Shown here piece by piece: positions 1,044-18,265 of a DNA stretch of 64,000 nucleotides; the stretch's first letter is position 1, and each line of letters opens with the position of its first letter. Source of the stretch: Candidatus Enterousia sp. Lineage in GTDB: Bacteria > Pseudomonadota > Alphaproteobacteria > Rs-D84. The translations under genes and the position numbers were made by a program. Below the pieces are notes generated by a model that saw nothing but the letters and a program-made list of their open reading frames with translations, was not told the DNA's origin and did no database searches. The stretch spans positions 142,873-206,872 of the forward strand of contig JBGUTP010000004.1 in assembly GCA_045133095.1 (NCBI GenBank), given 5' to 3'.

Positions 1044-1278
1044 ATATAGCAAGGGGCCACATCCGTCCCTGTTCCAGATTAACTATGTATTGGCTAATGA
1101 CTATCTGACCCTGCTGGGGCTAAAGGAATATTGCAGTGATGTCGACAGCACGGCCCGCTATATTGCCGGCATGTATCAGATTCAGACCCAAACACAAACC
1201 ATGACACCAGTTGAGATGGAAACAGTACGTCTGACAGCCAAGGAAGTATACGATGCAATCAATTCTGAACGAATCTAA
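1006..1278 (+). CDS. Hypothetical small protein
   Basis: ORF only. It overlaps neighbours at both ends. No recognisable domains. Confidence 0.2.
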   Translation: MKKKEIQMITKIEYSKGPHPSLFQINYVLANDYLTLLGLKEYCSDVDSTARYIAGMYQIQTQTQTMTPVEMETVRLTAKEVYDAINSERI

Positions 1279-2284
1279 CCACCGCAAATACAATCCCGGC
1301 AACGAACGTATCGTTAAAAAATATCTGGAACACGTCCGCCGGACCAAGCTGGCCGATAACAAGACCCTGCTGGCCCTGCGCAAATATCTGCGTGCGTTCG
1401 AGGTTTTAACGGACTTTCAAGACCTGGATCGCTATACCCCAGACATGGCCAAGGTATTCTTGGCCAATCTGCGGCAACAGTCGGTATCCCCCAGCTATAT
1501 GCACCGGATAACATCCGAAACGCAAAAGTTCATACGCTGGCTGGCGGACGAGCCATTTGGCCGACGCATTCGCCGAAACGACGCCGACTATCTGACCCTG
1601 ACCCAGAACGAGATTAATCGGGCCAACGCATCCGGATATAAACAGCATCACGAATATTCACAACTGTTGCATGCCGTTCGTACTATGCCAGCGCAAACAG
1701 TGACAGACCTGCGAAATCGGGCACTGGTTGCGCTGGTAATACTGACCAGCCCACGTGTAAGCGAACTGTGCAACTTTCGAATTGATACGATTATGCAGGA
1801 CCCGCTGGTTGGTGCATACTTTCTGGACATAAACCCACGAAAAATCAAGAATGTAAAATTCTGTCGTGCACGCCAGGCGACCTTGCTGAACGTCCCAAAT
1901 CTGCGGCAATTTGTTCTGGATTGGCGTGATATACTGGTCAACGAATACGGTTTTGATAAATCAGCCCCACTATTTCCCAAGATTGCAACCAATCCGTTCC
2001 AACTAAACATCTTTGAACGCATTGTAAAGCCCCAGCCAATATCCGTATGCACCGCCAATCAGATATTTAACGGCGCATGTGTGGCAAATGGACTGGCGCC
2101 ACTAAGCATCCACAGTGTCCGCCGCACCCGTGCCAGACACATTGAAAACATAACGCACGACGACCACATAGTCGCCCTGCAACAAGACTTTGGCCACAGC
2201 AGTATCGGCACCACCCGATGCAATTACGGCAACATCACCCCATCCCGCCAACGCGAACTAATCGCAGGGATTAAGGTGGAGTGA
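1253..2284 (+). mobile_element. Tyrosine site-specific recombinase / phage-type integrase gene
   Basis: 343 aa. The C-terminal region LTSPRVSELCNFRIDTI ... HSVRRTRARHI ... GHSSIGTTRCNYGNI fits the R...HxxR...Y catalytic signature of tyrosine recombinases. An AlpA-like gene lies upstream. Confidence 0.6.
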
Positions 2285-2315: not shown

Positions 2316-4037
2316 TCAAGCAAACTCAAAAGATACTTGTTTTATATCTTTTGCATATTTCTGCGCAAGTTTCTTGTCTGAATACTCCCAAAGATATCCG
2401 CCTGCTTGATTTCTATGCCCCCTGCATACCATACCTATGTTTGCAGGGTTTATATTCATTTGTCTTCCAGCATCTGATATGGATTTAAACGTTTTTATTA
2501 TGTGGCCCGTTTTAAGATCTATCATGTTTACCGCAACACTTTTTGCTAGATCGCTGCGTTCCTTGCCACATATAGGGCATCCTGTTGGGATTTTTTTGCT
2601 CGTTCTATGACTGATTGTTGACTGATACTCATAAGCACATTTTGGACATATCCACCATACTTTATGATCGGAACCACAACTAAACATACTTGGTCGCAAA
2701 TTGCCATTTTTAGTTGGATGCCATTCCATGGCTATATCTGGTCTTACAGAAACCAGAGAGTTGCTTATCTCCGATTTTTTATATTCTAATATTTTAAATC
2801 TGTCTCTTTTTAAATTTATTAAATCATCTGGTATTGGTTTATGCAAATTCAAAAGCATTAACACCTGCCTTAAGGCAAATTCCAAATTCTTATGTTCGTA
2901 CAGATTTTTCATACCAACTATACGATCTGCAACATCTTCGCCTGACTCCGGCATTTGTTCTCGCATTCTAATCAGCGTTATGCCGTGTTCTTTACATATT
3001 TGGTATTTTCGCTCTTCTCTTTCTATTTTATTTTGCTTATGCCAAGCTTCGCCATCATATTCAATCGCATATTTGATTGAAGGAATATAAACATCCAATT
3101 CAAACTTGCCCAGAAAATCAGATTTATACCTGCTTATCGTATCTGGATATAACTGGTTTACATAAAAGAATACCGCTTGCTCTGCAAAAGACGTCTGTCG
3201 TCCAGAATAACATATCGGACAGCCTGTGCCATTCGGCGCTGTTCTGTGACCTATCGTCGCTTGATATTCATGTCCCAATGGACATTGCCACCAAACCTTT
3301 TTGCTTGCACCACCAGCAAAATTCTCTGGTAACCAATCGCCATTTTTAGTTGGGTGCCACTCTTTGGCTATATGAGGGAATTTCGTTTTTAAATCGTTTA
3401 TTCCTGACACAACAACACTACCAGAACAACATGGACACCCCCGTTTTAACAACGCACGATTAGATACTTTCGCTTTCCATTCATAACCACATCTTGAACA
3501 TTTCCACCAAGCATATTTGTTAGAAGCGTACGATGTATATCTTGGATTTGCGGCATTTTTGGTCATATCCCATTCTTTTAAAAGTTCTGGTCTCGTGGAA
3601 GCCAGGTCTTTTATTCCTTTTTTACACTGTGGACACATTATTTGTTTTTTTATCTGGCTTTTTATTGTTGCCTCCCACTCATGATTACAGTCAGGACACC
3701 TCCACCAAACTTTGTTACGCGAGTACTTACTTACTATTTCAGGTTTTAATAATTTATTTTTAGAAAAATCCCAGTATTTAAGACGGTTTTGATGTGTCTC
3801 TACCAAATTAGACGAAATGTGTTTTTTTAATAAATATCTACATTTTGGGCAATCTTGTTTGCCAATAGCCCTATGATGAATAGCTGTTTGCCATTCATGG
3901 TCGCATTTGGAACATTTCCACCAGGCTTTCTTATTTGAACCCGGTGTCAATTTATTTGGATCTAAATCAGCATTAGCATCCCAGTCCCATTCAGACATGA
4001 GTTCTGTATTTTCAATAATGTATGATTTAGGCTTCAT
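2316..4037 (-). CDS. Multi-zinc-ribbon, DUF559/Vsr-like endonuclease-fold protein with NUMOD-like C-terminal DNA-binding domain (homing-endonuclease-like)
   Basis: Five repeats of WW(K/R/Q/I)C..C.HEWxxxI. A central ELDVYIPSIKYAIEYDGEAWHK segment has a PD-(D/E)xK DUF559-like core. The C-terminal SISDAGRQMNINPANIGMVCRG...GGYLWEY is typical of DNA-binding modules of free-standing homing endonucleases. Confidence 0.55.
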   Translation of the reverse strand: MKPKSYIIENTELMSEWDWDANADLDPNKLTPGSNKKAWWKCSKCDHEWQTAIHHRAIGKQDCPKCRYLLKKHISSNLVETHQNRLKYWDFSKNKLLKPEIVSKYSRNKVWWRCPDCNHEWEATIKSQIKKQIMCPQCKKGIKDLASTRPELLKEWDMTKNAANPRYTSYASNKYAWWKCSRCGYEWKAKVSNRALLKRGCPCCSGSVVVSGINDLKTKFPHIAKEWHPTKNGDWLPENFAGGASKKVWWQCPLGHEYQATIGHRTAPNGTGCPICYSGRQTSFAEQAVFFYVNQLYPDTISRYKSDFLGKFELDVYIPSIKYAIEYDGEAWHKQNKIEREERKYQICKEHGITLIRMREQMPESGEDVADRIVGMKNLYEHKNLEFALRQVLMLLNLHKPIPDDLINLKRDRFKILEYKKSEISNSLVSVRPDIAMEWHPTKNGNLRPSMFSCGSDHKVWWICPKCAYEYQSTISHRTSKKIPTGCPICGKERSDLAKSVAVNMIDLKTGHIIKTFKSISDAGRQMNINPANIGMVCRGHRNQAGGYLWEYSDKKLAQKYAKDIKQVSFEFA

Positions 4038-4101: not shown

Positions 4102-4443
4102 TCATTCCCCATCCGGGATTTCGGGGCTGGATACTTCGGTGATGTCATCAAATGGGATTTTGGTTTTGACTATGGTGATGTATCGGTATTCGGGGTCTAT
4201 GCGGGTGACCAGGCCCATTATGGTGTCATAGGCATCGGTCCGATAAAATCGCACCGTTATCATCATGCCCTTTTTAACCAGCGCAAGTTTCCGGGACAGT
4301 CGTTCGGCGGCATCGCCAATCAATTCCCGTCTGGGCTCAACCACCCGATTTTTAGCCAGCACCATCGCATAGTACCCACGCAGGGCCGCAAAAGGCATAA
4401 ACTGTTTTGCACGTGCGGTATTATCAGCCATTGTGTCCCCCAA
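4102..4443 (-). CDS. YolD-like protein (accessory partner of Y-family polymerase)
   Basis: 113 aa. It overlaps the 3' end of the upstream polymerase gene. Sequence and size are consistent with the YolD family associated with UvrX/UmuC on mobile elements. Confidence 0.6.
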   Translation of the reverse strand: MGDTMADNTARAKQFMPFAALRGYYAMVLAKNRVVEPRRELIGDAAERLSRKLALVKKGMMITVRFYRTDAYDTIMGLVTRIDPEYRYITIVKTKIPFDDITEVSSPEIPDGE

Positions 4444-5686
4444 CCAAAGTATTACGTTTGCGACCGGTAGACTTCTCGTGATAATTTATGCCACGCAGGA
4501 CGGCGTTCTTGCCAAACTTGCCCTTGATATCCAGCAATGCGTGTTGCAGTTTGCTTTCGCGTTCGTCCACCCTTGTGTCCGCAAATAAATCCAGTTGCAG
4601 ATGCACCGTATCCGCATCGACCAGGTTCCCCAACCCCACCGTCAATTTATGTATCGGTGTGCGTTTATCGGTCGTTTCCCGATACAGGCGCACAAATTCC
4701 GCCACCAATGATTTATAGGACGATGTGTGCGCTGGCAATTTACGACTGCCCCCGGTTGGGCGTTGCACATCGTGCGAGTACCCCACCGACAGAGATATTT
4801 CATCCGCCACCAGGTTCTTTTCCACCAATTCCAAGACCAGGTTGTCCACCATTTCCTGCATCACAATCTGTGCATCGTCAAAGTTATAATCTTCGAACAG
4901 AATCTGGCCGTTGGACAGGGAATGGGATTTCGCCTGATAATTGTGAATATCGGCAATCGTGCACGGCTCGATGCCGTTCGCATGGTCAATCAGGTATTCC
5001 GCATTTGTGCCGAATTCTTTGTATAGGGTTTCGGCCGGCAACTGCGTCACCCCACACAGGTCATAAACACCGTATTTTTCCAGTCGCCGTGCAATACCCG
5101 CCCCGATGTTCCAGATGTCTGTTATTGGCCGATGGTGCCACAGGTGTTCCCGGAACGATTCCGCATCCAGGTATCCGATATGGTCGGGGACTTTCTTGGC
5201 CGTGATGTCCAGCGCAACCTTGGCCAGGAACAGGTTCGTACCAATGCCGGCGGTGGCGCATATGCCCGTTTCATCCCGCACCGCATCCATCAGCATTATC
5301 GCCATTTCTTTGGGCGACCGTTTATACATTTTCAGGTACGGCGTGATATCGATAAAACATTCGTCAATGGAATAGACATGGATGTCTTCGGGCGAAATAT
5401 AGCGCAGGTAAATCCCGTAAATCTGGGCGGATACTTCCATATACTTTTTCATGCGGGGCATGGCGGTGATGTATTCGACCCCACGTGGGATTTCAAAGAC
5501 CCGGCAACGATTGCGAATCCCCAGGGCCTTCATCGCCGGCGTTATCGCCAGACAGACCGACCCCCGCCCCCGTGACGGGTCCGCCACCACCAGGTTTGTT
5601 GTAAACGGGTCCAGCCCACGGTCAACCGCTTCGACCGAGGCAAAGAAACTCTTTAAATCAATGCAAAGATAAAACCTTTCCGCCAT
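4424..5686 (-). CDS. Y-family (UmuC/UvrX/DinB-like) translesion DNA polymerase
   Basis: N-terminal FYLCIDLKSFFASVE (catalytic DxD-like start of Y-family palm), ...SIDECFIDIT..., ...LFLAKVALDITAKK. Length 420 aa. Confidence 0.85.
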   Translation of the reverse strand: MAERFYLCIDLKSFFASVEAVDRGLDPFTTNLVVADPSRGRGSVCLAITPAMKALGIRNRCRVFEIPRGVEYITAMPRMKKYMEVSAQIYGIYLRYISPEDIHVYSIDECFIDITPYLKMYKRSPKEMAIMLMDAVRDETGICATAGIGTNLFLAKVALDITAKKVPDHIGYLDAESFREHLWHHRPITDIWNIGAGIARRLEKYGVYDLCGVTQLPAETLYKEFGTNAEYLIDHANGIEPCTIADIHNYQAKSHSLSNGQILFEDYNFDDAQIVMQEMVDNLVLELVEKNLVADEISLSVGYSHDVQRPTGGSRKLPAHTSSYKSLVAEFVRLYRETTDKRTPIHKLTVGLGNLVDADTVHLQLDLFADTRVDERESKLQHALLDIKGKFGKNAVLRGINYHEKSTGRKRNTLVGGHNG

Positions 5687-5845
5687 TCCAGGACTCAGTA
5701 TAAACCGAATTCACAGGATGTCAAAAAGGATTGTATGGATAAAGGAACCCGCCCATGTGGGGCTAGTATTTACTTTAAGGATAAATGGATGCAATAGCCT
5801 GTACGGTTGAATATTTTTCCAATATTATACAGTGTTTATAGCGCG

Positions 5846-8800
5846 TTAATGTTTGTTAACCGTTTCTGAAATTTTTACTGTACGTGGATCTATTTCATTC
5901 GCAGGTAGCCCATTCAAGAAAGCTGTCTTATCCGCACCGTTGTACAAAATCCATAGCTGCTCTTTAGCACGTGTGATAGCCACATAAAACAGTCTTTTTT
6001 GATCCTTTAGCACCTCATTCGGCGTTTCACCAAAAACTTCGAATAAGGTGGCATCGGGATGTAATGCGGACATGATCGAAGCATCTGCTTCTAATATAAC
6101 TACAACATCCGCTTCTTGTCCCTTAACAGAATGTATTGTACCAATTGAAACCTTTTTCTCAAATTCTTCCCTGCTCATTATCCCCAGTTCAACACATACC
6201 TCTTTTACCTTAGCCAAGAAACGCTCTATGTCAACAAACCAAAATGACATATCGTTATTTCTATGAAGTAGTTTTATGCTATTTTTATCTTTGTTTTGCT
6301 TTATTATCCATACAACAGACTTCAAATATCTAACTGCATTAATTTCTGGTGCCCGTTTATCAGAAACACTCATTTTAGTCTTAAAGATACGATCTGCATC
6401 TGCTGTTACATCTATGGCCCGGCGTCTCTCTATGAACACATCGGATATATTTAATGTATTAACGTTACCTGGCTCAGACTTGTGTGCATTAAAGCTTTCT
6501 CGAGAATCCATATGTTTTTGCATAAATACTCGTGCATTATCAACAATATTGCTGTTACAACGATAATTTGTATCCAATGTCAGAATATATGCGTATTGAA
6601 AATAATTTCTAAAATTATCAAAGTATTTAACGTCCGACCCTGCAAACCTATTTATAGCCTGATATGTATCCCCTACACACATTACATTACAATACGGATT
6701 TTTTTGTTTAATCGCATCTATGAAGTCAAAAAACAGTTTAGAAAAATCCTGGAATTCATCTATAAAAATATACTGTTTTTTTGTTATGTTGACTTCTTGA
6801 TTATCTTTTATCGATTTTGATGCTTTATCCATAAGCATATTAAAGTCCATATCATACTGATTATGCTCTTTAATTTTTTGCATATATAATTTATAAATTC
6901 TAATTGCAATATCCAAAAACTCTCGTTCTCTGGTGTATTCTGGAACAGATTTAACCTTCTCCTCTAATGCTTCGATATCGTTCAAAAAGCTCTGTTGCGC
7001 ACGATTTATAAACTGTGCTATCAATTTAGCGAAATCAGGCATATGGCTTTTCCAGACTTGTCGTACCAGGATATCACGTGATAATTTCTCGGTTTTTATT
7101 CCCTGTTTATTTAACAGCTCTTTGATTGTATTTTCAAACTCTTCACGTGACTGGGTTGGATTATAATACGTCTCTACTAAACCATTCCAATCCTTAACCT
7201 GTTTTGCATACTTATTATAATCTACTGCCGATGGATCAACCCATTCACGAGCATAGAACCATTTTTTCCAATCCATATTAGTTTTATATTCTGAATATTT
7301 ACCAATATGACCTGCGGCATTTATTTTTTCAATTTCTTCTTCGGTTTCACGCCCCGTAATTCCCCAGTGCTCCCATACTAAATTAGAATCCTTTAACAAA
7401 AAATCGGGTTTTATAGATTCTTTTTGAACCAGATATTCTCTTTCATTTTGTTTGGCTATCCCCCATAAGTTACTGGTATAGCACACCGGTTCATACATAT
7501 ATTCAATTCCATGCTCAAACAAGAAATCGCAAATTACTTTTTCTGCCCTAGATTTTACGCAGGTGTTATCCAAGGTTTTATATTCCTGTGCTCTCACCAT
7601 CTGATAAAAATCATCTTCTGACACAAAGTATTTCTTCTCAATCTTGTGCCCCAACTTTCTACAAACAGAATAAAGCTCTTCTGGGGACACGTTATCAAAT
7701 ACTATATCTTGTATAAACTTACTAAGCTCAGGTCCCTGTTCTTTGCTGTCACACAAGATTTTATTATGCCGAACATTATTATACGCAAAGCTATGAAAAG
7801 TTGTTGCAACTGCTTTGGTTATAATTTGTTGTCCATCGACCCTAATGCTGGCCAACCGATTATTGATTTCCTTCGCCGCATCTTTATTGAATGCGAATGC
7901 AATAATAGAATCAGGATTTATATTACAGATTGCAACCAAATACACAATTTTTGCAACCAAAGTCCCTGTTTTGCCCGAACCAGCCAATGCCTGCACCAGT
8001 AAATTTTTATGTTCATCGGCAATAACCATTGCTTGTTTTCTATCAACAACATATATATCGCCATTGGTGTTTTTTGTTACATGGTGCTCGAACCATTCTA
8101 CAACTTTGTCCGCTATTATGGAGTTTACTTCATTTTTCAATCTAGCCACATCAGGAATATCGATGTTATCCAACTTCTTCAACAATTCAGGTCGCATTAT
8201 TCTTATTTGGGGTAATTCCAATCCTCGATAATGCGCCATATCTTTTTGAATTTCCTCTGTTAACTTCTTGCCTTCTTCATACTGTCTGACACTTACTTCA
8301 TTCTGTCTAAATGCAAGCATTTTTTGGCTTGGACGCGAAATCTTATCAATCCTACTGCAAATTGCCTTAAATTCACTAAAGGATATATCTCCATCGGTAT
8401 GCCAATGCTGATAAAAATTCTCGATATCTTCATCTATTTGCGCCTTTAATTGCGTCTCTAATACAAAGGCAGTGATATCTAACGATAAAAAATCTAAATG
8501 TCGTTGTGCTGGCTCTTTTAACCGCTTGATCATGTCACAAATATCATGAAATATGGATTCATAGTTTAAACTTTGTTGCTTTTTTTCTATATTGGTGACA
8601 AGCATTTCGATACGACTGTCAATTTCTATTACCAACCCTCGGTCTTCTACCATTGCCCAGAGCTCTTCTTTTTGCTTTGAGAAGAAAGCAGCATCATTAA
8701 GTTGTTCTATTAGCTCACAAATTTTTTGATATTCAGACCAGTAGTACTTAGCTTCCAATGTTGTTCGAAAATCTTCTATTAACTTGGCTATTTTCGTCTG

Positions 8801-8992
8801 CAGGCACTTTTCTTTTTCGGCAATGACATCCCTGGCCAAGAATTGTAACATTCTTGGGCTCGGCTTCTCTAAGCCTTTTATCAATGTACATATTCTGCGA
8901 TATTCTGACAAATCATAGTCAGAAAACGTTCCGTTTTGTATATCCCAAACGTACGCAGTTATGTCTAAATCTATTTGTGTCTCTAAATCCAT
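5846..8992 (-). CDS. UvrD/Rep-like superfamily-1 helicase with inserted restriction-endonuclease-like segment and four N-terminal ~33-aa repeats
   Basis: Walker A LAGSGKTGT. Q-motif region ATTFHSFA. DExx box FIDEFQDFS. Motifs V/VI GTIHSVKGQEADVVVI and FYVAITRAKEQLWI. Inserted KPDFLL...VWEHWG segment. N-terminal repeats carry a S/YE(F/Y)xxIC core. Confidence 0.8.
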   Translation of the reverse strand: MDLETQIDLDITAYVWDIQNGTFSDYDLSEYRRICTLIKGLEKPSPRMLQFLARDVIAEKEKCLQTKIAKLIEDFRTTLEAKYYWSEYQKICELIEQLNDAAFFSKQKEELWAMVEDRGLVIEIDSRIEMLVTNIEKKQQSLNYESIFHDICDMIKRLKEPAQRHLDFLSLDITAFVLETQLKAQIDEDIENFYQHWHTDGDISFSEFKAICSRIDKISRPSQKMLAFRQNEVSVRQYEEGKKLTEEIQKDMAHYRGLELPQIRIMRPELLKKLDNIDIPDVARLKNEVNSIIADKVVEWFEHHVTKNTNGDIYVVDRKQAMVIADEHKNLLVQALAGSGKTGTLVAKIVYLVAICNINPDSIIAFAFNKDAAKEINNRLASIRVDGQQIITKAVATTFHSFAYNNVRHNKILCDSKEQGPELSKFIQDIVFDNVSPEELYSVCRKLGHKIEKKYFVSEDDFYQMVRAQEYKTLDNTCVKSRAEKVICDFLFEHGIEYMYEPVCYTSNLWGIAKQNEREYLVQKESIKPDFLLKDSNLVWEHWGITGRETEEEIEKINAAGHIGKYSEYKTNMDWKKWFYAREWVDPSAVDYNKYAKQVKDWNGLVETYYNPTQSREEFENTIKELLNKQGIKTEKLSRDILVRQVWKSHMPDFAKLIAQFINRAQQSFLNDIEALEEKVKSVPEYTREREFLDIAIRIYKLYMQKIKEHNQYDMDFNMLMDKASKSIKDNQEVNITKKQYIFIDEFQDFSKLFFDFIDAIKQKNPYCNVMCVGDTYQAINRFAGSDVKYFDNFRNYFQYAYILTLDTNYRCNSNIVDNARVFMQKHMDSRESFNAHKSEPGNVNTLNISDVFIERRRAIDVTADADRIFKTKMSVSDKRAPEINAVRYLKSVVWIIKQNKDKNSIKLLHRNNDMSFWFVDIERFLAKVKEVCVELGIMSREEFEKKVSIGTIHSVKGQEADVVVILEADASIMSALHPDATLFEVFGETPNEVLKDQKRLFYVAITRAKEQLWILYNGADKTAFLNGLPANEIDPRTVKISETVNKH

Positions 8993-9052: not shown

Positions 9053-9460
9053 TTAGGCCAACACACCCATAAAACAATATGGTTTTTGGGATAAGATTTG
9101 CGACACGATTAAATCTGCTGGTAATTGTGGGTGAGATGGCAGGTTTGGAATTGATACCCAGTGCATATCGTCGTGGACGCGCAGTTGGATTTCACCAGTG
9201 TAGGATTTGATTTCGTATGTGTGCAGTTCGATAACCCGGCCTGAATCCGTTGTATGTTTTGCGATTGTAATCAAGTCGCCAATTTGTGCATCTATCCCCA
9301 ACTCTTCGGCCAGTTCACGTTTCAGGCATGTTGGGCCGTCTTCACCATCTTCAAACTTACCACCGGGATATTCCCACGTCCCCGCCAATGGCTGGCCAGC
9401 CGCCCGTCGCATCAACAAGACTTTGTCGTCATCCCTAAAAATCGCTGCAGTTACTTTCAT
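9053..9460 (-). CDS. mutT: NUDIX hydrolase (MutT-like), copy 1
   Basis: Nudix box GGKFEDGEDGPTCLKRELAEELGI. 135 aa. Confidence 0.8.
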   Translation of the reverse strand: MKVTAAIFRDDDKVLLMRRAAGQPLAGTWEYPGGKFEDGEDGPTCLKRELAEELGIDAQIGDLITIAKHTTDSGRVIELHTYEIKSYTGEIQLRVHDDMHWVSIPNLPSHPQLPADLIVSQILSQKPYCFMGVLA

Positions 9461-9559: not shown

Positions 9560-10006
9560 ATGTCTATCACACAAGATAACGGCAAAAAAGGCGAACAAGA
9601 AGTTGTCGATTTGGTATTGTGCCCAAATTGTAAAAAGAAATTGATGTTGTTGCCGCCGAATTATCCGTTGTGTGATATACAATGTACTGGCTGCCAATTC
9701 AGAGCACAGATTAAAACAGCAAACCATAAACCTTCATCTGTCATTCGTGGTGCAGGATGGGACATTATGGAAAAAGTGTTAAAAGCGGGTATACTGCCAC
9801 CATTACTTATTTTGAATTTCAAATGGAACGAAAAAGGCAAACAGTTTCAAGAAATTAGATTTTATCCATTTGTTCCAAAATCTCATTTGAAGAAATATAC
9901 CTTGTCACCAGAGGCTAGAAGAGCAAATTATAGGATGTTTAATTACGTAAATATGGATAAATTACCCTATGTAACACTGTATCAAAACCAAACAGAAACA
10001 GCATAG
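9560..10006 (+). CDS. Hypothetical protein with CxxC...CxxC zinc ribbon, possibly a PD-(D/E)xK-fold
   Basis: GKKGEQEV...LCPNCKKK...CDIQCTGCQFRAQIKTA. SD-like aggag lies 8 nt upstream of the ATG. Confidence 0.4.
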   Translation: MSITQDNGKKGEQEVVDLVLCPNCKKKLMLLPPNYPLCDIQCTGCQFRAQIKTANHKPSSVIRGAGWDIMEKVLKAGILPPLLILNFKWNEKGKQFQEIRFYPFVPKSHLKKYTLSPEARRANYRMFNYVNMDKLPYVTLYQNQTETA

Positions 10007-10176: not shown

Positions 10177-11046
10177 TTAAATATTGGTATCGGATGGTAA
10201 AAACAACCAATTATATTCTGGAAAAGGTATTGGTTGGCCATAACCTAGACTTTTCATAATGCGCATAACTTCTTCTGCATGACAAGGCAAGTAATCGTGA
10301 CAATGCGCAGGAAAACTCTCTATAAATATAATTGGTTTGTATTTTTTTATAATATTCATCATCCCTTTTAGTGCTTCTATTTCAAAACCCTCTACATCTA
10401 TTTTTATAAAATCTAGTTTATTTACGTCCAATTTGAACCGATCTAGTGATACTATTGAAACAGAATATTTGTTTTTTGTATCTGACACTTTTATACTTGT
10501 ACCTCCAATATTATCAGATGCCATAAAATCAATTTCTCCCTTTCCATTATTGCTCCCCACCCCCATGTTAAAAGCCGTCACAATATTATCAATCTTGTTG
10601 ATTTTGATATTATTTGTTAACATTCTGAAGGTTTCTGGAATCGGTTCAAAAGCGATCACCCTTTTTGCTTCACCAACTGTCGCAAAAAATACCGAATGAT
10701 TGCCAATATTTGCCCCCACATCCAGTATGGTGGCATTTTTCGGTAAATATTTTAAAAGACGATAAAGAATATCTTGTTCAAAAAAATTAGATGTATTCAC
10801 TATGGTACGTTGAATTACATCCCATGGGTACAGCGGGCAATACATTTTTATAGAATTCGGCATTGTAAAAACGTCCTTATTTTGTATCAAAGACATTTTT
10901 CTACAAATAGTGTCTGTATCAGAATATACAGGGATATACTTTGGCAATATTCCGTGTTTCCTTTGGAATTTGCGACGGTTGTCTTTTGATATAATAAAAA
11001 AAGAGATTATTTTAAACACGCGTTGCATTATTTTTCCATATAACAT
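10177..11046 (-). CDS. FkbM-family SAM-dependent methyltransferase
   Basis: ILDVGANIGNHSVFFA...RVIAFEPIPETF...IDFIKIDVEGFE is typical of the Methyltransf_21/FkbM domain. Confidence 0.7.
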   Translation of the reverse strand: MLYGKIMQRVFKIISFFIISKDNRRKFQRKHGILPKYIPVYSDTDTICRKMSLIQNKDVFTMPNSIKMYCPLYPWDVIQRTIVNTSNFFEQDILYRLLKYLPKNATILDVGANIGNHSVFFATVGEAKRVIAFEPIPETFRMLTNNIKINKIDNIVTAFNMGVGSNNGKGEIDFMASDNIGGTSIKVSDTKNKYSVSIVSLDRFKLDVNKLDFIKIDVEGFEIEALKGMMNIIKKYKPIIFIESFPAHCHDYLPCHAEEVMRIMKSLGYGQPIPFPEYNWLFLPSDTNI

Positions 11047-11709
11047 TTAGTATATTTCCATTTTTTTATCCCAATCAATATTGTGTTTTACTATTTTTGC
11101 AGGATTACCAGCAATAACAGTATTTGTCTCTCTAAAACCCTTTGATATAACTGCGGCATTCGCAACAACCGTGTTATTTGGAATTTTTGCCCGTTTCGTA
11201 AAAATAGCATTTGCTCCAATCCAACAGTGATCACCAACAGTCAAAATGTCTTTTGGAATATTTATAACTCGTTTAGTGTCATTATCCATTAAGGCATGAA
11301 AATCAGAAGCCCAAACTTGAACATCCCTAGAAATCAAACAATCTTTACCAATACAACATTTTGCCCCAGCTGATATGTAAATGTGTATTTCGCTTATGTA
11401 TGTATTATCGCCAATAGAAAGATAATTACTATTTCCACGTTCCATTAATATATTTGTATCGTTAAACATGCAGTTTTTACCTAAATTTACAACATTATCA
11501 TCGGATAATATGGTAATATTTATGTTAGACTGGTTTAGCGGAAGCGAAATATAAATTCTATTATTATTTCCATGTATTTTAATTTTGCCTAGCTTTCGAA
11601 TTTCTTTTTGCCCCAGCTTAAAAAGCTTGTCATTGATAACAGCCGCGACAATGTTGTTTTTTCCTTTTACATCTAATTTTCTTGAATTAAATTTTAACAT
11701 ATCATGCAA
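11047..11709 (-). CDS. Hexapeptide-repeat (left-handed beta-helix) sugar O-acetyltransferase
   Basis: Repetitive [LIV]G..xxI hexads. The C-terminal HCWIGANAIFTKRAKIPNNTVVANAAVI resembles LacA/WbbJ/Vat-type acetyltransferases. Confidence 0.65.
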   Translation of the reverse strand: MHDMLKFNSRKLDVKGKNNIVAAVINDKLFKLGQKEIRKLGKIKIHGNNNRIYISLPLNQSNINITILSDDNVVNLGKNCMFNDTNILMERGNSNYLSIGDNTYISEIHIYISAGAKCCIGKDCLISRDVQVWASDFHALMDNDTKRVINIPKDILTVGDHCWIGANAIFTKRAKIPNNTVVANAAVISKGFRETNTVIAGNPAKIVKHNIDWDKKMEIY

Positions 11710-11761
11710 TATTGTAATTTATAGTGCTACTTTTTCAAGCTTTTTCTTGAAATTTGATATT

Positions 11762-12556
11762 ATGTGTATAATTATGGGAAAAAGAGGTTTTGCATTGATC
11801 CCAAAAATTTCCGTTTTTATGCCTGCATACAATTCTGAAGAATTTATAGCAGAAGCCATAGAAAGTATTTTAAATCAAACTTTTAAAGATTTTGAATTTA
11901 TCATAATCAATGATGGTTCTACAGATCATACGTGGGACATAATACAAAAATATGCAAGGCAGGACAACAGAATCCGCGCATACTCCAGATGTATAAACAA
12001 GGGGATTGTTTATACTGCTAATGAAGGCTTTGAACTTGCAAGGGGCGAATATATCGCTCGAATGGATAGTGACGACATATCACTACCTGAACGTTTTGAA
12101 AAACAGATAAAATATATGGAAACCCATCCCGACATCGGCTTGCTGGGGGCCTGGACACAGTATTTTCCGGGTTTTGATATCTCAAAAAGACCGGAGAACA
12201 TCAATTTGTTTTACCTATTAAAAGATTGCCCTGTAGACCAGCCTGTTGTAATGATTAGAAAATCAGTCATAGATAAATACCATTTACGTTATGATGAAGA
12301 CTATCTGGCATGCGAAGACCAAGAATTATGGTTCAGATTAATAAAAGTATCCAGGATTGCTAACTTGCAGGAATTATTGTTAATGCACAGATGGCACGGG
12401 AATAATATTTCAATCAAAATGGGCGACATTCAGCAACAGAACATCCAAAAAATTCGAAGACAGATTTTAAATTTCATAACGACAGACAAAAAAGAACAAG
12501 ATGCAATAAAAAAAATTATACCAGAAATGCTTGCACCCTTGCTATTAAAAACTTGA
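11762..12556 (+). CDS. Family 2 glycosyltransferase
   Basis: ISVFMPAYNSEEFIAEAIESILNQTFKDFEFIIINDGSTD...RMDSDDIS is the GT2 DxD architecture. The ORF track extends to 11585, but that part overlaps the convergent acetyltransferase; the internal Met at 11762 or 11774 is the likely start. Confidence 0.75.
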   Translation: MCIIMGKRGFALIPKISVFMPAYNSEEFIAEAIESILNQTFKDFEFIIINDGSTDHTWDIIQKYARQDNRIRAYSRCINKGIVYTANEGFELARGEYIARMDSDDISLPERFEKQIKYMETHPDIGLLGAWTQYFPGFDISKRPENINLFYLLKDCPVDQPVVMIRKSVIDKYHLRYDEDYLACEDQELWFRLIKVSRIANLQELLLMHRWHGNNISIKMGDIQQQNIQKIRRQILNFITTDKKEQDAIKKIIPEMLAPLLLKT

Positions 12557-12604
12557 CAATCTTGTTATCTGTGCTACAACATATGTAAACACAGGGGCTG
12601 TGAC

Positions 12605-14056
12605 ATGAAATTTGAATACGGTGTTGATTTAATACAATTAGCAGACAATATCTACTGTTTGAATAACGCCTATAGACAGACGCAAATTTTCGGAAACAGA
12701 AAACTCAAAGAATATTTTGAAAAAGTATGCAAAAACAATTCTGTGAATGCAGACGTGTACAACATGTTTTTACAAAATAATTTCTTAACAGATAAGCCGG
12801 CAGATGCGTACAAACAAAAACTATTACAAGATTCTTTAATATACAGTGCAAAGCCAGAATTTAACTTATTAAGAATTTTACTGACCGATGTTTGTAATTT
12901 AAATTGCGATTATTGCAAGGTTGTAAAATTGATAGATACCCCATCGGCAAAACCAACAAAACAAGAACGTTTGGAAGAAGCTATAAAGTTCTTTTTTGAA
13001 AATTCTATACCATATGAGCCTAAAATAATTCATATCACTGGCGGTGAACCCACATTGTTTTTTGATAGTATTAAGCAAATAGTACAATATAAAAAGAAAT
13101 ATATGCGCCCAAATGAAAATTGCTGGGTTGTGGTAGGCACAAACGCTATAGCTATAACACCAGATAAAGCAAAATTTTTTGCCGACAATAACATAAAATG
13201 TATTGTGTCAATGGATGGACCAGAACATACGCATAATTTATTACGAAAAAACCACGCAGGCCACGGAACCTGGGCAACAGTTGATAAAAACATTAAACTG
13301 TTACAATCATATGGTGTTGAAATATCTATTTCAGCCGTTATGGGCAAGCACACGATTTATAACGCTGATGAAAATATATCGTTCCTGGTTAATGAATACC
13401 ATCCAACAGGTCTGGGGATCAATTTTATGAAGCCACCAACCACAAATTCAGCTGACTATGAATATTTAATTGATGAAAAACTATATGCAGAAACGATGTA
13501 CAAACTGCATCAAAACTATCGAAACCGTGGCGTGTTCTTTGAGTTAATTTTCAGACACTTGGAACCATTTGTACAACAAACTTTCAGATTTCATGATTGT
13601 GGTGCTGCGGCCAGTAAAAATTTAAACATTGATGCAAAAGGAAATATCGGACCGTGCAAATCTTTCTTATTGCTAAATAAAATGGCTATGAAGGATATAA
13701 ATATCCAAGAATATATTGATATCGTATCTACAAATTGGGAAAAACGTTCACCAATTCATTTTGCTCCCTGTCAAAATTGCCCAAGTATCGGCATATGCGG
13801 AAATGGCTGTGCATATGATGCATTTATAAACAATAGCGATATGTTAGCCATAGATACACGAGGGTGCAAATATGTAAAATATTTTTATAAATTGTTCTTG
13901 CAAGACTTGTATGAAATATCGCGTAAAACACATAGCGGGCAAGATATTTTTATACCAACGCAATCTGATAGATTGCAAATGTTGGGAAATGTAAAAGAAA
14001 TTCAAAATTCCTTAAGTTATTCAATAGGACATCAGACGAAACTGTTTCAAAAATGA
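12605..14056 (+). CDS. Radical SAM enzyme with C-terminal SPASM/twitch Cys cluster
   Basis: CNLNCDYC is the CxxxCxxC motif. ITGGEP glycine-rich SAM motif. C-terminal Cys cluster CGAAAS...GPCKS...APCQNCPSIGICGNGCAYDA. 483 aa with an ~95-aa N-terminal extension. Confidence 0.8.
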   Translation: MKFEYGVDLIQLADNIYCLNNAYRQTQIFGNRKLKEYFEKVCKNNSVNADVYNMFLQNNFLTDKPADAYKQKLLQDSLIYSAKPEFNLLRILLTDVCNLNCDYCKVVKLIDTPSAKPTKQERLEEAIKFFFENSIPYEPKIIHITGGEPTLFFDSIKQIVQYKKKYMRPNENCWVVVGTNAIAITPDKAKFFADNNIKCIVSMDGPEHTHNLLRKNHAGHGTWATVDKNIKLLQSYGVEISISAVMGKHTIYNADENISFLVNEYHPTGLGINFMKPPTTNSADYEYLIDEKLYAETMYKLHQNYRNRGVFFELIFRHLEPFVQQTFRFHDCGAAASKNLNIDAKGNIGPCKSFLLLNKMAMKDINIQEYIDIVSTNWEKRSPIHFAPCQNCPSIGICGNGCAYDAFINNSDMLAIDTRGCKYVKYFYKLFLQDLYEISRKTHSGQDIFIPTQSDRLQMLGNVKEIQNSLSYSIGHQTKLFQK

Positions 14057-14655
14057 TAAAACAAAATCATTTATTTTCTGTTTTAATGACTGGTTACAGT
14101 ATTCTGAAACGACGCAATAATTTTGTACATAATTTTAACCATTGTAAACGCGTATTTTTTAATAATGTGCGGATTTTAGGGTTAAGTTCTTTACCAAGTC
14201 TTCGAATTTTAATATTATCGGCCATGTGGCACGACGTTGGACAAAACGACTTCAAACAACAAGCAAAAAATCATCATATATATTCCGCCAGACTATTCAA
14301 ATACTTTACTAAAGAACAAACATATTCAGACATAGTTGTGAATATAATTTTATGCCATAGAAATCGTGGAGCCAATAAGCAATTTTCTCCAAAGACATTA
14401 TTAGAAAAAGCTTTTTTCGATGCCGACAAATTAGACATATTAAATATACCACGATCAAAAAAACTGATAAAATTATACTCTTATGGGTTTTCGTGCGGAG
14501 AGTTTAATATCAAGGACACGCTTGATTTTTGGGAAAACTTTATTATAAACGGCGAAAAAACTTTATTCTTAGAAAGCTCCAAGAAAATATTTCGTAAGAG
14601 AATAAAAAAATTTATACAATTTGTCATATACACCAAAGGAAAATATAATGTCTGA
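14053..14655 (+). CDS. HD-domain-like phosphohydrolase (tentative)
   Basis: H/D-containing segments SAMWHDVG, ILCHRNRG and FFDADKLDIL. The ATGA start overlaps the upstream stop. Confidence 0.35.
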   Translation: MIKQNHLFSVLMTGYSILKRRNNFVHNFNHCKRVFFNNVRILGLSSLPSLRILILSAMWHDVGQNDFKQQAKNHHIYSARLFKYFTKEQTYSDIVVNIILCHRNRGANKQFSPKTLLEKAFFDADKLDILNIPRSKKLIKLYSYGFSCGEFNIKDTLDFWENFIINGEKTLFLESSKKIFRKRIKKFIQFVIYTKGKYNV

Positions 14656-16015
14656 TACGAACAAAGTGGAAATTACAAACATGGATGTTTTTTTTGATTA
14701 CGTCAAAAAACATTTTTTTGCCGACATTACAAACCAGCCATATTTATTGAAAAGCACCCCGAACAGTGTGTTGAACCCCATTCTAGACACATTAAAATCT
14801 CATTTGTCAGATGACAACGTCAAGCAAATAAAAAATATTTTGTTTTATAAGTGGATTTATACCAACGGAATGAAATCCCTATTATTGAATCCGCATTCAG
14901 ATTATATCATACGAAATAGTATTGGATATGAATTTACACCGAAACAAGAGCTTTATGGACATTTATTACAAATTAAAGACTATTTCGACTATATGATAGA
15001 TTTTTATATTGAAAAAAATATGGCTTATAAATTGAAATTAGCATTATTTACATCGGAAACATTTGAATCAGCATTTAATAAGGCAAATATCGAATTTGAA
15101 AAGAGAGTAAAAAGAAATTCTGCCTTGGGGATAGATAATGAAAAAAACATCCTGCTGCATCTGGATAATGGATATAAGCTTGTAAAATTAAATACAGTAT
15201 ACGATTTAGATTATGAAGGATTGTGCATCGGACACTGTATTGGCGAAGGTGTTTTAGACAAAGAAATTAACGACACAAAATCAACAATAACTATTTGCTC
15301 TTTGCGCAAAGACATGTTGGTAAAGGAACGTATCTCCGGTAAAAACATTGTTCGTTCAATACCTTTTGCTTCAATTGTCATAGATCGTTTTGAAAAACTT
15401 CCAAACGGAAAAATATCAGGCAATGTGATTTCCATTGAGGGGCACATCGCTGGGAAAGTTAGATACTACCTAAAAAACCAATTGGACAAACAAGATGCCT
15501 GGAAGGGAAGATTTCCCCCATATATTCATCCTACTTCCGTATCAAACGAAGAAATCGAGTGTCGGAACACCGAACTACAACGAACGCTAACAAACTTCTT
15601 TATGCAAAACAAATTGATAATATGCGGAGAGAGAAAGTATACAACATGTTTGACCCAGGATTATAAGATCGACATGCCAACAACATATTCTATAAGAATT
15701 CGGACCCAGGATGATTTAATTCGAGCTAGCCAACAAGGTTTTTATCATATTGTTATCCCTTCATACGATATGTTTATACCAACAATTCAGCCGATAAGGG
15801 TGGAGCCTTTTGAGAATAAACATAGTTTAAACATAACAAAGTCAGGAACATACGATTTAACGGAGATGCAGAATTTAAAAACAATAAATGTTTCTGCTAG
15901 CCAAGTAACAATATATTGTTATAATTGTAATAATTTGCAAAATATTAATCGTCTAACAGACACAAAAGTGTTGATAGAACGCAATAAATATAATATCATA
16001 CAAAACACTCACTAA
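14648..16015 (+). CDS. Hypothetical protein (~455 aa), no recognisable domain
   Basis: Long ORF inside a same-strand operon. The Met at 14648 follows ggaaa and overlaps the upstream gene end. It contains LDYEGLCIGHCIGEG. Confidence 0.45.
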   Translation: MSDTNKVEITNMDVFFDYVKKHFFADITNQPYLLKSTPNSVLNPILDTLKSHLSDDNVKQIKNILFYKWIYTNGMKSLLLNPHSDYIIRNSIGYEFTPKQELYGHLLQIKDYFDYMIDFYIEKNMAYKLKLALFTSETFESAFNKANIEFEKRVKRNSALGIDNEKNILLHLDNGYKLVKLNTVYDLDYEGLCIGHCIGEGVLDKEINDTKSTITICSLRKDMLVKERISGKNIVRSIPFASIVIDRFEKLPNGKISGNVISIEGHIAGKVRYYLKNQLDKQDAWKGRFPPYIHPTSVSNEEIECRNTELQRTLTNFFMQNKLIICGERKYTTCLTQDYKIDMPTTYSIRIRTQDDLIRASQQGFYHIVIPSYDMFIPTIQPIRVEPFENKHSLNITKSGTYDLTEMQNLKTINVSASQVTIYCYNCNNLQNINRLTDTKVLIERNKYNIIQNTH

Positions 16016-16026
16016 GGATTGCTTTT

Positions 16027-16896
16027 ATGAAAATATACAAAGATGGCTGGCTAGAAACTGGCGAGGGACATAGTATTTATTATATGTTATTAGGCAACCC
16101 AAATGGCACACCTGTTTTGTCTTTTCATGCTGGCCCTGGGGATTGTTCATGGGCAGGATTTTATGATTTTTTAGACGAAAAAAAATATAACATTATTACA
16201 TTTGACCAACGTGGCTGTGGAAAATCTGAGCCCTTTGGCAAAATAGAAGATAACACAATTGACAAAATTTTAGCGGATGCAAAGGCATTGCTTGACTTTA
16301 TTGGCATTCAGGATAAATGTATTTTATTTGGTGGGTCCTGGGGCAGCACTTTGGCATTGGCTTTTGGGGCAAAATTTCCACATATAACAAAATCCTTGGT
16401 GCTATCAAATGTTTTGTTGGGCCGCCATCATGATTTAAAAAAACTGATGTCTGATTTAAAAAAATTTAAGCCATTATCAGATTATGATGTTGATGAAAAT
16501 AATATATTCTTGAAAATAAAGCAGGCGATATGTAAAAACGATATTGAATTTTTGTCAAAATATAATGATTATGAAATATATAAATATACATTTCATAGAA
16601 GCGATGGGTTAAAAACAAATTTGATAGAAAAAGATTTCTTACAAAAACGTCTTTATTGTAACTTTTTATGTAACAACCTATTTTTGTCAAACAAAGGTAT
16701 TGTGAATGAGTTGCAAAAACTGTCTGACAAGCCCATTTTCTTGGTACATAATAAATACGACCCGATATGTAATATAGAGCAAGCACATCTTTTAAAAAAG
16801 CATCTACCACAAACAGAATTGGTCGTGTTAAACAAACGTGGGCACGGAGGAGATTTCCAAATTGACACACTTAAAAAATTCTTCAAAAAAGCTTAA
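16027..16896 (+). CDS. Alpha/beta hydrolase, proline-iminopeptidase-like (S33 family)
   Basis: Nucleophile elbow FGGSWGSTLALAFG (GxSxG) with HAGPGDC upstream matches the prolyl aminopeptidase pattern. Confidence 0.7.
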   Translation: MKIYKDGWLETGEGHSIYYMLLGNPNGTPVLSFHAGPGDCSWAGFYDFLDEKKYNIITFDQRGCGKSEPFGKIEDNTIDKILADAKALLDFIGIQDKCILFGGSWGSTLALAFGAKFPHITKSLVLSNVLLGRHHDLKKLMSDLKKFKPLSDYDVDENNIFLKIKQAICKNDIEFLSKYNDYEIYKYTFHRSDGLKTNLIEKDFLQKRLYCNFLCNNLFLSNKGIVNELQKLSDKPIFLVHNKYDPICNIEQAHLLKKHLPQTELVVLNKRGHGGDFQIDTLKKFFKKA

Positions 16897-18067
16897 TGTT
16901 TGTTTAGTTTATCCTGGCTATCCGCCATATGAACAAGAATCCGGGGGGATTGCATCATATGTCCAGGAAACAGTACAGTTTTTGACCGCATCGGGGCACA
17001 ATGTTGTTGTTATTTCCCGTGCGCCTAGCATATCGCACATTATCAAAAAAAACACAAAAGGCGCCCATATTATATATCTGCCACATTTCTTGCCACGCAT
17101 CAGCAAATTATTTCCCCTGTTAAAATTTAATAAATACGGGGCATATTTTTATTCATATAAAGCATACAAATATTTAAACAAGATAGAAAAAGAAACTCAT
17201 ATACGATTTGATGTTATTGAAGCTAGCGATTGGGGCGGCGAAGGTTATTTTTTTGTAAAGAAATTTCCAAAGAGAACAATTATAAAATGTGACACCCCAA
17301 GTTTTATATCAGAATCATACAACCCAAACAACCCGGCGTATTTAAGTTCTTTTGTAAAAAGGCTAGAACAAAAAACATTATTAAATGCTAAAAACATCGT
17401 ATCAAACAGTAAAAAATTAATGCAAAAAATAAATAGCGTACTACATAAAAAATTATCTTTTACTTTGATTCAATTATCAATGAAAACAACGCCTGCCTAT
17501 AAAACAAAGTACGAGAGCAAATTTTCAAAAAATAATCCAATGAAAATTATCTTTTCTGGCAGAATAGAGAAACGAAAAGGGATTTTCAACCTAATAAAAG
17601 CGGTAAAACAACTGAGAGATCAGGGGATATTTTTGGAACTTTATTGTTTTGGTGCTTCAACGCCTGTTAAACAAACGGACACCATAACAATATTACAAAA
17701 TAAAGGATATGAGTGGCTTCATTTTTATGGTTCTGTTCCAAGGAAACAAATGATAGAACAATATAAAAATTATGATTTATGTGTTGTTCCGTCCGTATTC
17801 GACAGTTTTTGCCTTACAGCACTGGAAGCAATATACTCAAAACTGCCAACCATTATGTCTAACACGACCGGCATTACAGATTTAATATCCAACAAGAGCC
17901 TTGTTTTTTGTTCGTTTGACGAAATGCTATTGAAGCTTAAAGATGCATACTATAACTATTCAACCTATATCTCAGCAATCAACTCTACCTCAACTGAATT
18001 ATATCATAAAACACAGACAGCTAATAGGGACCGATTAAATTATTATTATAAAGTCTCACCCACTTGA
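16838..18067 (+). CDS. Family 4 (GT-B, group 1) glycosyltransferase
   Basis: The N-terminal LVYPGYPPYEQESGGIASYVQETVQFLTASGHNVVVIS and C-terminal RIEKRKGIFNLIKAV...EAIYSKLPTIMSNTTGITDLI match the GT4 pattern. The 59-nt overlap with the upstream gene leaves the start uncertain. Confidence 0.7.
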   Translation: MGTEEISKLTHLKNSSKKLNVCLVYPGYPPYEQESGGIASYVQETVQFLTASGHNVVVISRAPSISHIIKKNTKGAHIIYLPHFLPRISKLFPLLKFNKYGAYFYSYKAYKYLNKIEKETHIRFDVIEASDWGGEGYFFVKKFPKRTIIKCDTPSFISESYNPNNPAYLSSFVKRLEQKTLLNAKNIVSNSKKLMQKINSVLHKKLSFTLIQLSMKTTPAYKTKYESKFSKNNPMKIIFSGRIEKRKGIFNLIKAVKQLRDQGIFLELYCFGASTPVKQTDTITILQNKGYEWLHFYGSVPRKQMIEQYKNYDLCVVPSVFDSFCLTALEAIYSKLPTIMSNTTGITDLISNKSLVFCSFDEMLLKLKDAYYNYSTYISAINSTSTELYHKTQTANRDRLNYYYKVSPT

Positions 18068-18129
18068 TACTGTATATTAAATACATCAATGCTTTTTTAC
18101 AGTGGACAATGTTATCTTTAGATACAAAT

Positions 18130-18220
18130 GAAACGCCGCCAGTGGCTGGTCAGCCGCCCGTCGCATCAGCAGAACTTTATCACCATCCCTAAAAATCGCA
18201 GCAGTTACTTTCATATTTCC
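18130..18220 (-). pseudogene. Truncated 5' fragment (~90 nt) of the NUDIX/mutT gene
   Basis: The sequence ccagtggctggtcagccgcccgtcgcatcagcagaactttatcaccatccctaaaaatcgcagcagttactttcat matches the first ~30 codons of both full mutT copies, including the ATG. Confidence 0.6.
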
Positions 18221-18265
18221 CTTCATAGCTCTGATACGCCCCCGTTCTTCCCCATAGCAATATGA

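Follow-up and report, generated by a model that had tools for sequence, protein, structure and literature searches.

Helicase–nuclease fusions are central to DNA end processing, as in RecBCD and AddAB, and to several defence systems, and in all those known to us the nuclease either forms a terminal module or is a subunit of its own. AddA and RecB join a superfamily 1A (SF1A) helicase motor and a restriction-endonuclease-fold nuclease in one polypeptide, with the nuclease C-terminal, after domain 2A, and with AddB or RecC/RecD as partners. Nhi, the Gao Hhe 'helicase + Vsr endonuclease' and the NERD+UvrD candidates follow the same concept, in that a single polypeptide unites an SF1 helicase with a nuclease of restriction-endonuclease fold, and are carried in defence islands or mobile elements; Nhi and HheA reportedly have Upf1-like (AAA_11/AAA_12) motors with terminal nuclease domains. 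GajB, the UvrD-type helicase of Gabija, likewise occurs in defence contexts; it has no internal nuclease domain and works with a neighbouring OLD-type protein, GajA (ATPase plus TOPRIM). DNA helicase IV of E. coli (HelD) has an SF1A motor, an N-terminal extension and a reduced 2B region and, to our knowledge, no nuclease domain in 1B. In the HelD proteins of Bacillus and Mycobacterium, a large insertion where 1B would be divides domain 1A, the N-terminal domain is helical and there is no 2B; a Gre-like coiled coil at the N terminus of HelD-type helicases enters the secondary channel of RNA polymerase, to which they bind. Here we describe a protein of 1048 amino acids (aa), encoded in a 64,000-nucleotide stretch of Candidatus Enterousia sp. 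DNA (contig JBGUTP010000004.1, positions 142,873 to 206,872; the whole stretch is called the window below), in which a domain of predicted nuclease fold is nested inside domain 1B of a helicase IV/UvrD-like SF1A motor.

The gene lies on the minus strand, starts with ATG and has the ribosome-binding site GAGGTGGTGA. Its parts, in window coordinates, are as follows.

5846..8992, minus strand: whole open reading frame (ORF), 1048 aa; helicase IV/UvrD-like SF1A helicase with nested nuclease domain and N-terminal helical repeat array.
8297..8971, minus strand: repeat array, aa 8-232, four units of about 58 aa with the core (S/Y)E(F/Y)xxIC..I..L...P...M..F.
7769..8056, minus strand: N-terminal half of helicase domain 1A, aa 313-408, with Walker A and motifs Ia/Ib; aligns with UvrD 11-99 and PcrA 15-100.
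6917..7768, minus strand: expanded 1B region, aa 409-692, the gap between the blocks aligned with PcrA and UvrD.
7148..7585, minus strand: nuclease core, aa 470-615 (~145 aa), order alpha-beta-beta-beta-alpha-beta in the predicted structure.
6503..6916, minus strand: rest of 1B and second half of 1A, aa 693-830, with motifs II, III and IV; aligns with PcrA 170-304.
5849..6502, minus strand: domain 2A, aa 831-1048, with motif V (TIHSVKGQEAD) and motif VI (VAITRAKEQL), from Pfam, the PcrA/UvrD alignment and the family alignment.

An earlier note on this DNA had read the ORF at 5846-8992 as a 1048-aa protein with canonical SF1 motifs, and the ORF, its ATG and the motifs quoted are all present. 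All SF1A helicase motifs are intact: Walker A (AGSGKTGT) at aa 337-344, motif II (DEFQDF) at aa 745-750, of which DEFQD is 745-749, motif III (VGDTYQAI), motif IV (NYR), GTIHSVKGQEADVVVI at about aa 950-965 and VAITRAKEQLWI at aa 1004-1015. The Pfam UvrD-helicase profile (PF00580), which has 271 positions, matches split over aa 319-798 (E = 2e-32; 113 bits, cut-off 23), and UvrD_C (PF13361) matches aa 935-1018 (47 bits, cut-off 25.6). In an alignment of the query with 20 relatives of 22-49% identity, G338, G340, K341, T342, D745, E746, Q748 and D749 are invariant and R1008 is conserved in at least 90%. On these Pfam matches and motif residues the protein is assigned to the UvrD/Rep/PcrA-like SF1A superfamily. 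About 115 aa stand in place of the second 2A part and the 170-aa 2B domain of UvrD/PcrA, a space so small that 2B is probably absent or vestigial.

Of the named models, DNA helicase IV (NF008276, COG3973) scored best, at 183.5 bits against an equivalog cut-off of 543; the match covers only the motor segments, and the N-terminal domains are unrelated. The likeness extends to the N-terminal extension and the reduced 2B region. Scores against the UvrD, PcrA and Rep equivalogs (54-115 bits, cut-offs 911-1168) and against AddA and RecB (30-58 bits, cut-offs 650-1697) were likewise far below threshold.

The feature that sets this protein apart from those above lies between motifs Ib and II. There, an insertion of ~285 aa (query 409-692) stands for ~69 residues of PcrA (101-169), within domain 1B. 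The earlier note had seen an insertion of ~60 aa splitting the helicase motifs; the insertion is real and much longer than that, the nuclease-fold core by itself being ~145 aa. AlphaFold2 modelled a 196-aa stretch of the insert at a mean confidence (pLDDT) of 94.8, in the order helix, three strands, helix, strand. In the model, E484 lies in alpha1, E501 after beta1, P529-D530-F531 at beta2, E541-H542-W543 in beta3, Y569 and K576 in alpha2, and E607-T608 in beta4. Judged by this modelled topology and its acidic residues, the core is assigned to the restriction-endonuclease-like (PD-(D/E)xK) fold, and the structures nearest to it are Vsr, DUF559, RAP and I-Bth0305I. Those nucleases and T7 endonuclease I are free-standing or terminal domains, unlike the helicase-embedded domain found here.

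A Foldseek search of the insert against PDB gave no significant match (best E = 0.012), with PD-(D/E)xK proteins at the top of the list. Against Pfam the insert had no match even at E ≤ 10, neither to Vsr (PF03852) or DUF559 (PF04480) nor to any other family, and against PADLOC the insert alone gave only weak matches, to PDC-S69, PDC-S68 and HEAT_CxxC_PDDEXK. A profile of the insert matched only T7 endonuclease I in PDB, weakly (E = 0.066-0.15); in that alignment E484, D530 and E541 pair with the catalytic E20, D55 and E65 of T7 endonuclease I, and its Lys67 pairs with W543.

Conservation in the insert is extreme at a few positions. In the query and 20 relatives S481, E484, Y500, E501, P529-D530-F531, E541, Y569 and K576 are invariant. 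Across 170 family representatives sharing ≤50% identity the values are 99% for S481, 99% for E484, 98% for E501, 99-100% for P529-D530-F531, 99% for E541, 94% for H542, 100% for Y569, 98% for K576 and 92% for E607. The likely active site comprises E484, E501, D530, E541 and H542, with K576 on the next helix. That the insert might be an ordinary 1B or 2B helicase subdomain, an outcome the earlier note had allowed for, does not fit the near-invariant acidic residues and the nuclease fold. The insert is, we conclude, a functional domain of nuclease type that represents a distinct family and presumably cuts DNA. Domain 1B of UvrD and PcrA is located at the junction of the DNA and at the gateway for the single strand, and the motors of AddA and RecB pass DNA on to the nuclease; because of these two precedents we propose translocation-coupled cutting. 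The SF1A motor would move 3'->5' along single-stranded DNA, and the nuclease embedded in 1B would cut the DNA being threaded or unwound. The outcome may be processive degradation or nicking, as with AddA and RecB but by a single polypeptide of different topology.

The N-terminal region carries the repeat array. The earlier note had described four degenerate repeats of ~33 aa; the four copies are real, and the period is about 58 aa (range ~57-61), with a conserved core of ~30 aa in each unit. The cores begin near aa 28, 85, 146 and 205, and in an ungapped 24-aa BLOSUM62 scan their windows scored 58, 56, 42 and 42, against a null of maxima over 200 shuffles with mean 26, standard deviation 4.5 and highest value 45. 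A BLASTP comparison of the N-terminus with itself gave the diagonal only and no repeats. Each unit models as a generic three-helix bundle, and structure searches with the N-terminal model returned generic helical bundles only, with no specific match. By local hmmsearch, the repeats are confined to one subclade (P0001-P0005 and P0007) and its loci, in 3-5 copies, and family members outside it have different N-termini. A side observation concerns P0007 (locus L090, 2014-5218), an 850-aa protein with an overlapping 219-aa ORF, which is probably a frameshifted or decaying copy. Between the alleles described below, the N-terminus is 23-34% identical, versus 54-70% for the motor; the nuclease region, at 53-59%, is as conserved as the motor. 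The three-helix repeats are the fastest-diverging part of the protein and would probably form a regulatory module or one that recognises a target or partner.

The nested-nuclease architecture is not peculiar to the window. The insert profile found 9,487 representative proteins (clusters at 50% identity) at E ≤ 1e-3, 3,349 at E ≤ 1e-10 and 433 at E ≤ 1e-30, spread across phyla; among the 150 matches listed, most are 700-1200 aa long and have the insert at around aa 300-600. One genome per species was also scanned with a narrow pattern, which confirmed 144 relatives; these span Gastranaerophilales, Saccharibacteria, Clostridia, Xanthomonadales, Chloroflexota, Cyanobacteria and others, and the best match (98%) is in a Ca. 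Gastranaerophilales metagenome-assembled genome (MAG). Gut metagenomes and a Ca. Gastranaerophilales MAG contain identical or 98%-identical proteins. Members also occur on seven plasmids, some of them haloarchaeal, where their only annotation is "UvrD-helicase domain-containing protein", and the phage collections searched hold essentially none. A phage origin was rejected, there being no phage matches. This is a large family of helicase-nucleases without a name: the nuclease module is modelled in none of the copies of Pfam, NCBIfam, PHROGs and PADLOC that we searched, and no account of a UvrD-like helicase with a nuclease nested in it came up in literature searches. Helicase-nuclease fusions as such are known; a Vsr/T7-endonuclease-I-like nuclease within 1B of a helicase IV-like motor is, as far as searches of Pfam, NCBIfam, PADLOC, PHROGs, PDB and the literature show, a new variant. 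The earlier note could name no system with this domain order; found in some 9,487 representative clusters, the architecture is not rare.

Compared with the described fusions, the protein differs in its motor, in the position of its nuclease or in its partners. From AddA and RecB it differs in that the nuclease is nested in 1B, has no conserved partner and belongs to a different branch, being Vsr/T7 endonuclease I-like and devoid of the (D/E)xK lysine. Neither Nhi nor Gao_Hhe models appear among the best 25 of its 34 PADLOC matches, all of which are to GajB or reverse transcriptase-associated helicase models; Pfam AAA_11 is unmatched, and the nuclease is internal. GajB is the top PADLOC match (E = 1e-40), with similarity limited to the helicase core. 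The earlier note's comparison with GajB comes down to this generic UvrD similarity, and membership in Gabija was rejected, as the helicase has NUDIX and Y-family polymerase genes as its neighbours in the window and no GajA, and no GajA-type gene is conserved beside other family members.

No partner gene is conserved among ~75 loci, and the 144 immediate neighbours match 115 different Pfam families. The helicase-nuclease stands alone, as the earlier note had supposed in calling it a candidate single-gene system. Around the window copy, the gene order is two HTH_17 genes, a tyrosine integrase, a DUF4379 nuclease, YolD, a Y-family polymerase (PolY), the helicase, a NUDIX gene and a divergent DpnI-like gene:

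1253-2284, plus strand: tyrosine integrase, a mobile-element context.
2316-4037, minus strand: nuclease of 573 aa with five DUF4379 units, DUF2726/MTES_1575 and NUMOD (Pfam).
4102..5745, minus strand: conserved downstream flank, consisting of the PolY promoter, PolY and YolD, defined by nucleotide identity to loci L009 and L011.
4102-4443, minus strand: YolD, in the conserved flank downstream of the helicase.
4424-5686, minus strand: PolY, in the same flank.
5724-5697, minus strand: PolY promoter, near-consensus TTGACA-16-TATACT, within 5697-5745, inside the flank that is about 95% identical in elements with different helicase alleles.
9053..9460, minus strand: NUDIX gene (Pfam NUDIX), 135 aa, 60 nucleotides (nt) upstream of the helicase on the same strand.
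9560-10006, plus strand: DpnI / 'Dam-replacing' family protein, 148 aa, matching methyl-directed type II restriction enzymes.

The earlier note had placed the gene on an integrated element beside an integrase, a homing-endonuclease-like gene and a YolD/UmuC cassette. Mobile-element genes do surround both the window copy and its subclade relatives, and the neighbours are confirmed as the integrase, the DUF4379/DUF2726/NUMOD protein, YolD and the Y-family polymerase. No att-like direct repeat was found between the left window end and 5-30 kb, the best match being 12 nt.

Comparison with related elements shows that the helicase occupies an exchangeable slot. PolY-YolD together with the 60 nt upstream of PolY is 94.6% identical in nucleotide sequence to L011 and 96.7% to L009, yet the helicases of L009 and L011 represent another allele, of 1140-1143 aa and 43% amino acid identity to that of the window. 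Relatedly, the NUDIX gene is 86% nucleotide-identical in L009, beside the other helicase allele, and L010 has the same helicase allele as the window with different upstream genes. The slot junctions are sharp: the 3' junction, at ~5745, is the start of the shared PolY promoter, and on the 5' side L010 and L011 retain just the last 26-35 nt of the 3' end of the NUDIX gene. The GC content of the helicase is 0.34-0.36 in both alleles (0.355 in the window) versus 0.475-0.52 in the flanks. The helicase is thus cargo in a slot of a mobile element, with alleles swapped between near-identical flanks, and the NUDIX gene belongs to the ancestral flank of that slot. The element appears to have a second variable slot after YolD, which in L011 (10509-13025) holds a different nuclease-bearing protein with an AAA_11/AAA_12 helicase and DUF2726.

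Two tighter associations were considered and rejected. An obligate two-gene NUDIX-helicase system is contradicted by the presence of NUDIX in only 3 of the 144 immediate neighbours and by its deletion in L010 and L011, and an obligate helicase-PolY operon by the polymerase's own promoter and the restriction of the linkage to this element. Two neighbours of the helicase also have PADLOC matches. The NUDIX protein is matched along its whole length by PDC-S07, a candidate single-gene defence family (E = 1.4e-35), and the DpnI-like protein, transcribed divergently from NUDIX, matches methyl-directed restriction enzymes, though just in the catalytic part of their profile. When the two proteins were looked up, no other contigs were found.

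Some features of the surroundings are recorded for completeness. The DUF4379 units of the 573-aa protein are treble-clef zinc fingers and its DUF2726/MTES_1575 nuclease is Vsr-like; its gene has an internal DNA repeat (2643-2737 versus 3279-3373, 76% identical). Three further NUDIX genes and a pyrophosphatase lie nearby in L011. Window positions 10177-19828 form a low-GC block (0.30-0.35) with glycan-type genes, encoding an FkbM methyltransferase, a hexapeptide transferase, a GT2, a radical SAM protein, an HD protein and an alpha/beta hydrolase, along with a 464-aa protein without Pfam match, a GT4 that also matches 'GT4-conflict' and a 520-aa PDDEXK_1 protein.

Defence genes recur around some of the relatives. 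Both PglX-like and PglZ-like genes lie near the helicase in four loci, and in the two annotated bacteriophage exclusion (BREX) loci the interval from pglX to pglZ contains the helicase, while several adjacent genes, the helicase and those next to it among them, overlap by 4 nt:

L056, 1033-16418: BREX locus whose pglX-pglZ interval also holds PDC-M25, PDC-S02 and Shedu.
L067, 2321-20098: BREX locus whose pglX-pglZ interval also holds DRT UG5-nitrilase and Lamassu LmuA/LmuB.

GmrSD, SNF2-like, possibly type IIG-like large proteins or OLD-like ATPases occur within ±5 genes in at least 14 of ~80 loci, and serine recombinases also recur within that distance. P0004, 48% identical to the query, has a DUF2779 gene on one side and an integrase on the other; a type I restriction-modification system, GmrSD and a PLD gene come next. 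Neighbours in the repeat-bearing subclade are integrases, a serine recombinase, an FtsK/SpoIIIE gene and a PcfJ-like gene.

These observations make it about an even bet (probability roughly 0.5) that this self-contained, ATP-driven helicase-nuclease acts in conflict with foreign DNA, as a single-gene anti-phage or anti-plasmid defence. Defence is favoured because of the BREX hot spots, the defence-island and mobile-element neighbours, the exchange of alleles, the divergent N-terminus and the absence from phages. The more detailed proposition, of a widespread and unrecognised single-protein immunity or anti-plasmid enzyme that cuts DNA at the gateway of its motor, takes its recognition from the repeats and has its alleles exchanged in mobile-element slots and BREX hot spots, is correspondingly more tentative and falls short of even odds. 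The earlier note's defence candidate is plausible, but was overstated, its basis being context only. Several observations weigh against a defence role. The position of the (D/E)xK lysine is W543, which is Trp in 88% and Phe in 10% of the family, so that activity would have to rely on H542 and K576, the candidate substitutes for the lysine. The PADLOC search gave no match to a validated defence protein beyond generic UvrD similarity, and a recognisable defence neighbour is missing at most family loci. Chromosomal copies in 5-6 Gastranaerophilales/Vampirovibrio genomes (L040, L045, L047, L066 and L033) stand in a conserved order with a histidine kinase, a LuxR-type response regulator, pyruvate phosphate dikinase and DnaB, and a member in Methylohalobius adjoins uvrD among housekeeping genes. 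This comes close to the finding that the earlier note had named as fatal to its idea, orthologues at a housekeeping locus, except that the syntenic copies are distant paralogues of the window helicase (~30% identity in the insert) rather than orthologues. One MAG, MGBC159851, holds both a syntenic copy (L045) and a recombinase-linked copy (L053). Finally, all four element variants keep the helicase directly upstream of PolY-YolD, and this layout, with a MutT-like NUDIX gene ancestrally upstream, also reads as a DNA-damage module.

Some of these facts also speak for the principal rival, in which the protein is a helicase IV-like end- or gap-processing helicase-nuclease for DNA repair or recombination that maintains the genome or the element, perhaps as part of a damage-tolerance module with NUDIX, PolY and YolD. 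Repair is favoured because of the helicase IV affinity (the best named model, at 183 bits), the syntenic chromosomal lineage beside dnaB and the constant NUDIX-helicase-PolY-YolD neighbourhood; the Methylohalobius member beside uvrD and the scarcity of the family in phages fit it too. We consider it a serious rival, though less likely than defence. PolY has its own strong promoter in the conserved flank, so that co-transcription is not required, and adjacency to PolY was seen at none of the family loci compared outside this element. The helicase has been swapped for a 43%-identical allele while PolY-YolD stayed ~95% identical, and its GC content is 15 points off, which argues that the two are not co-adapted; several members, moreover, reside in BREX hot spots that also contain other defence systems. 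Two further roles are less likely. The protein might serve the element itself in transfer or establishment, or as an anti-defence factor, by processing the element's own DNA or by attacking competing elements or host defences after transfer. The integrases, serine recombinases, FtsK/SpoIIIE and PcfJ-like genes beside subclade relatives are consistent with this, as is a slot that varies like the accessory regions of conjugative elements; however, no relaxase or conjugation genes were seen beside the helicase in the window, the wider family is mostly chromosomal, the BREX-embedded members point to host-side defence and there is no link to known anti-defence families, making the idea improbable. 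At least as improbable, and by a shade more so, is a HelD-like factor associated with RNA polymerase, in which the grip on the polymerase would come from the helices at the N terminus and from the 1A-inserted arm, and the nuclease-like domain would be structural or act on nucleic acid of stalled complexes. The layout does match, in that the N-terminal domain is helical, a large insertion divides 1A and 2B is not clearly present, and there is a weak sequence match to B. subtilis HelD in its RNA polymerase complex (6wvk_H, E = 2.4e-5). This match is, however, confined to the Walker A/P-loop region, the N-terminal model resembles generic helical bundles only, and the inserted domain has a predicted nuclease fold with a strictly conserved acidic site, unlike the inserted clamp arm of HelD, which is not a nuclease fold.

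A nuclease inside domain 1B of an SF1A motor is a different way to couple unwinding and cutting from those described so far. If the family acts in defence, a common single-gene system would be added to those known, and its N-terminal domain would offer a variable region for studies of specificity; if it acts in repair, helicase IV-type proteins would gain a testable function. On either reading the annotation of the family can be improved now, the few source names seen being 'UvrD-helicase domain-containing protein' or, as in the automated name of relative P0014, 'DNA helicase-4'.

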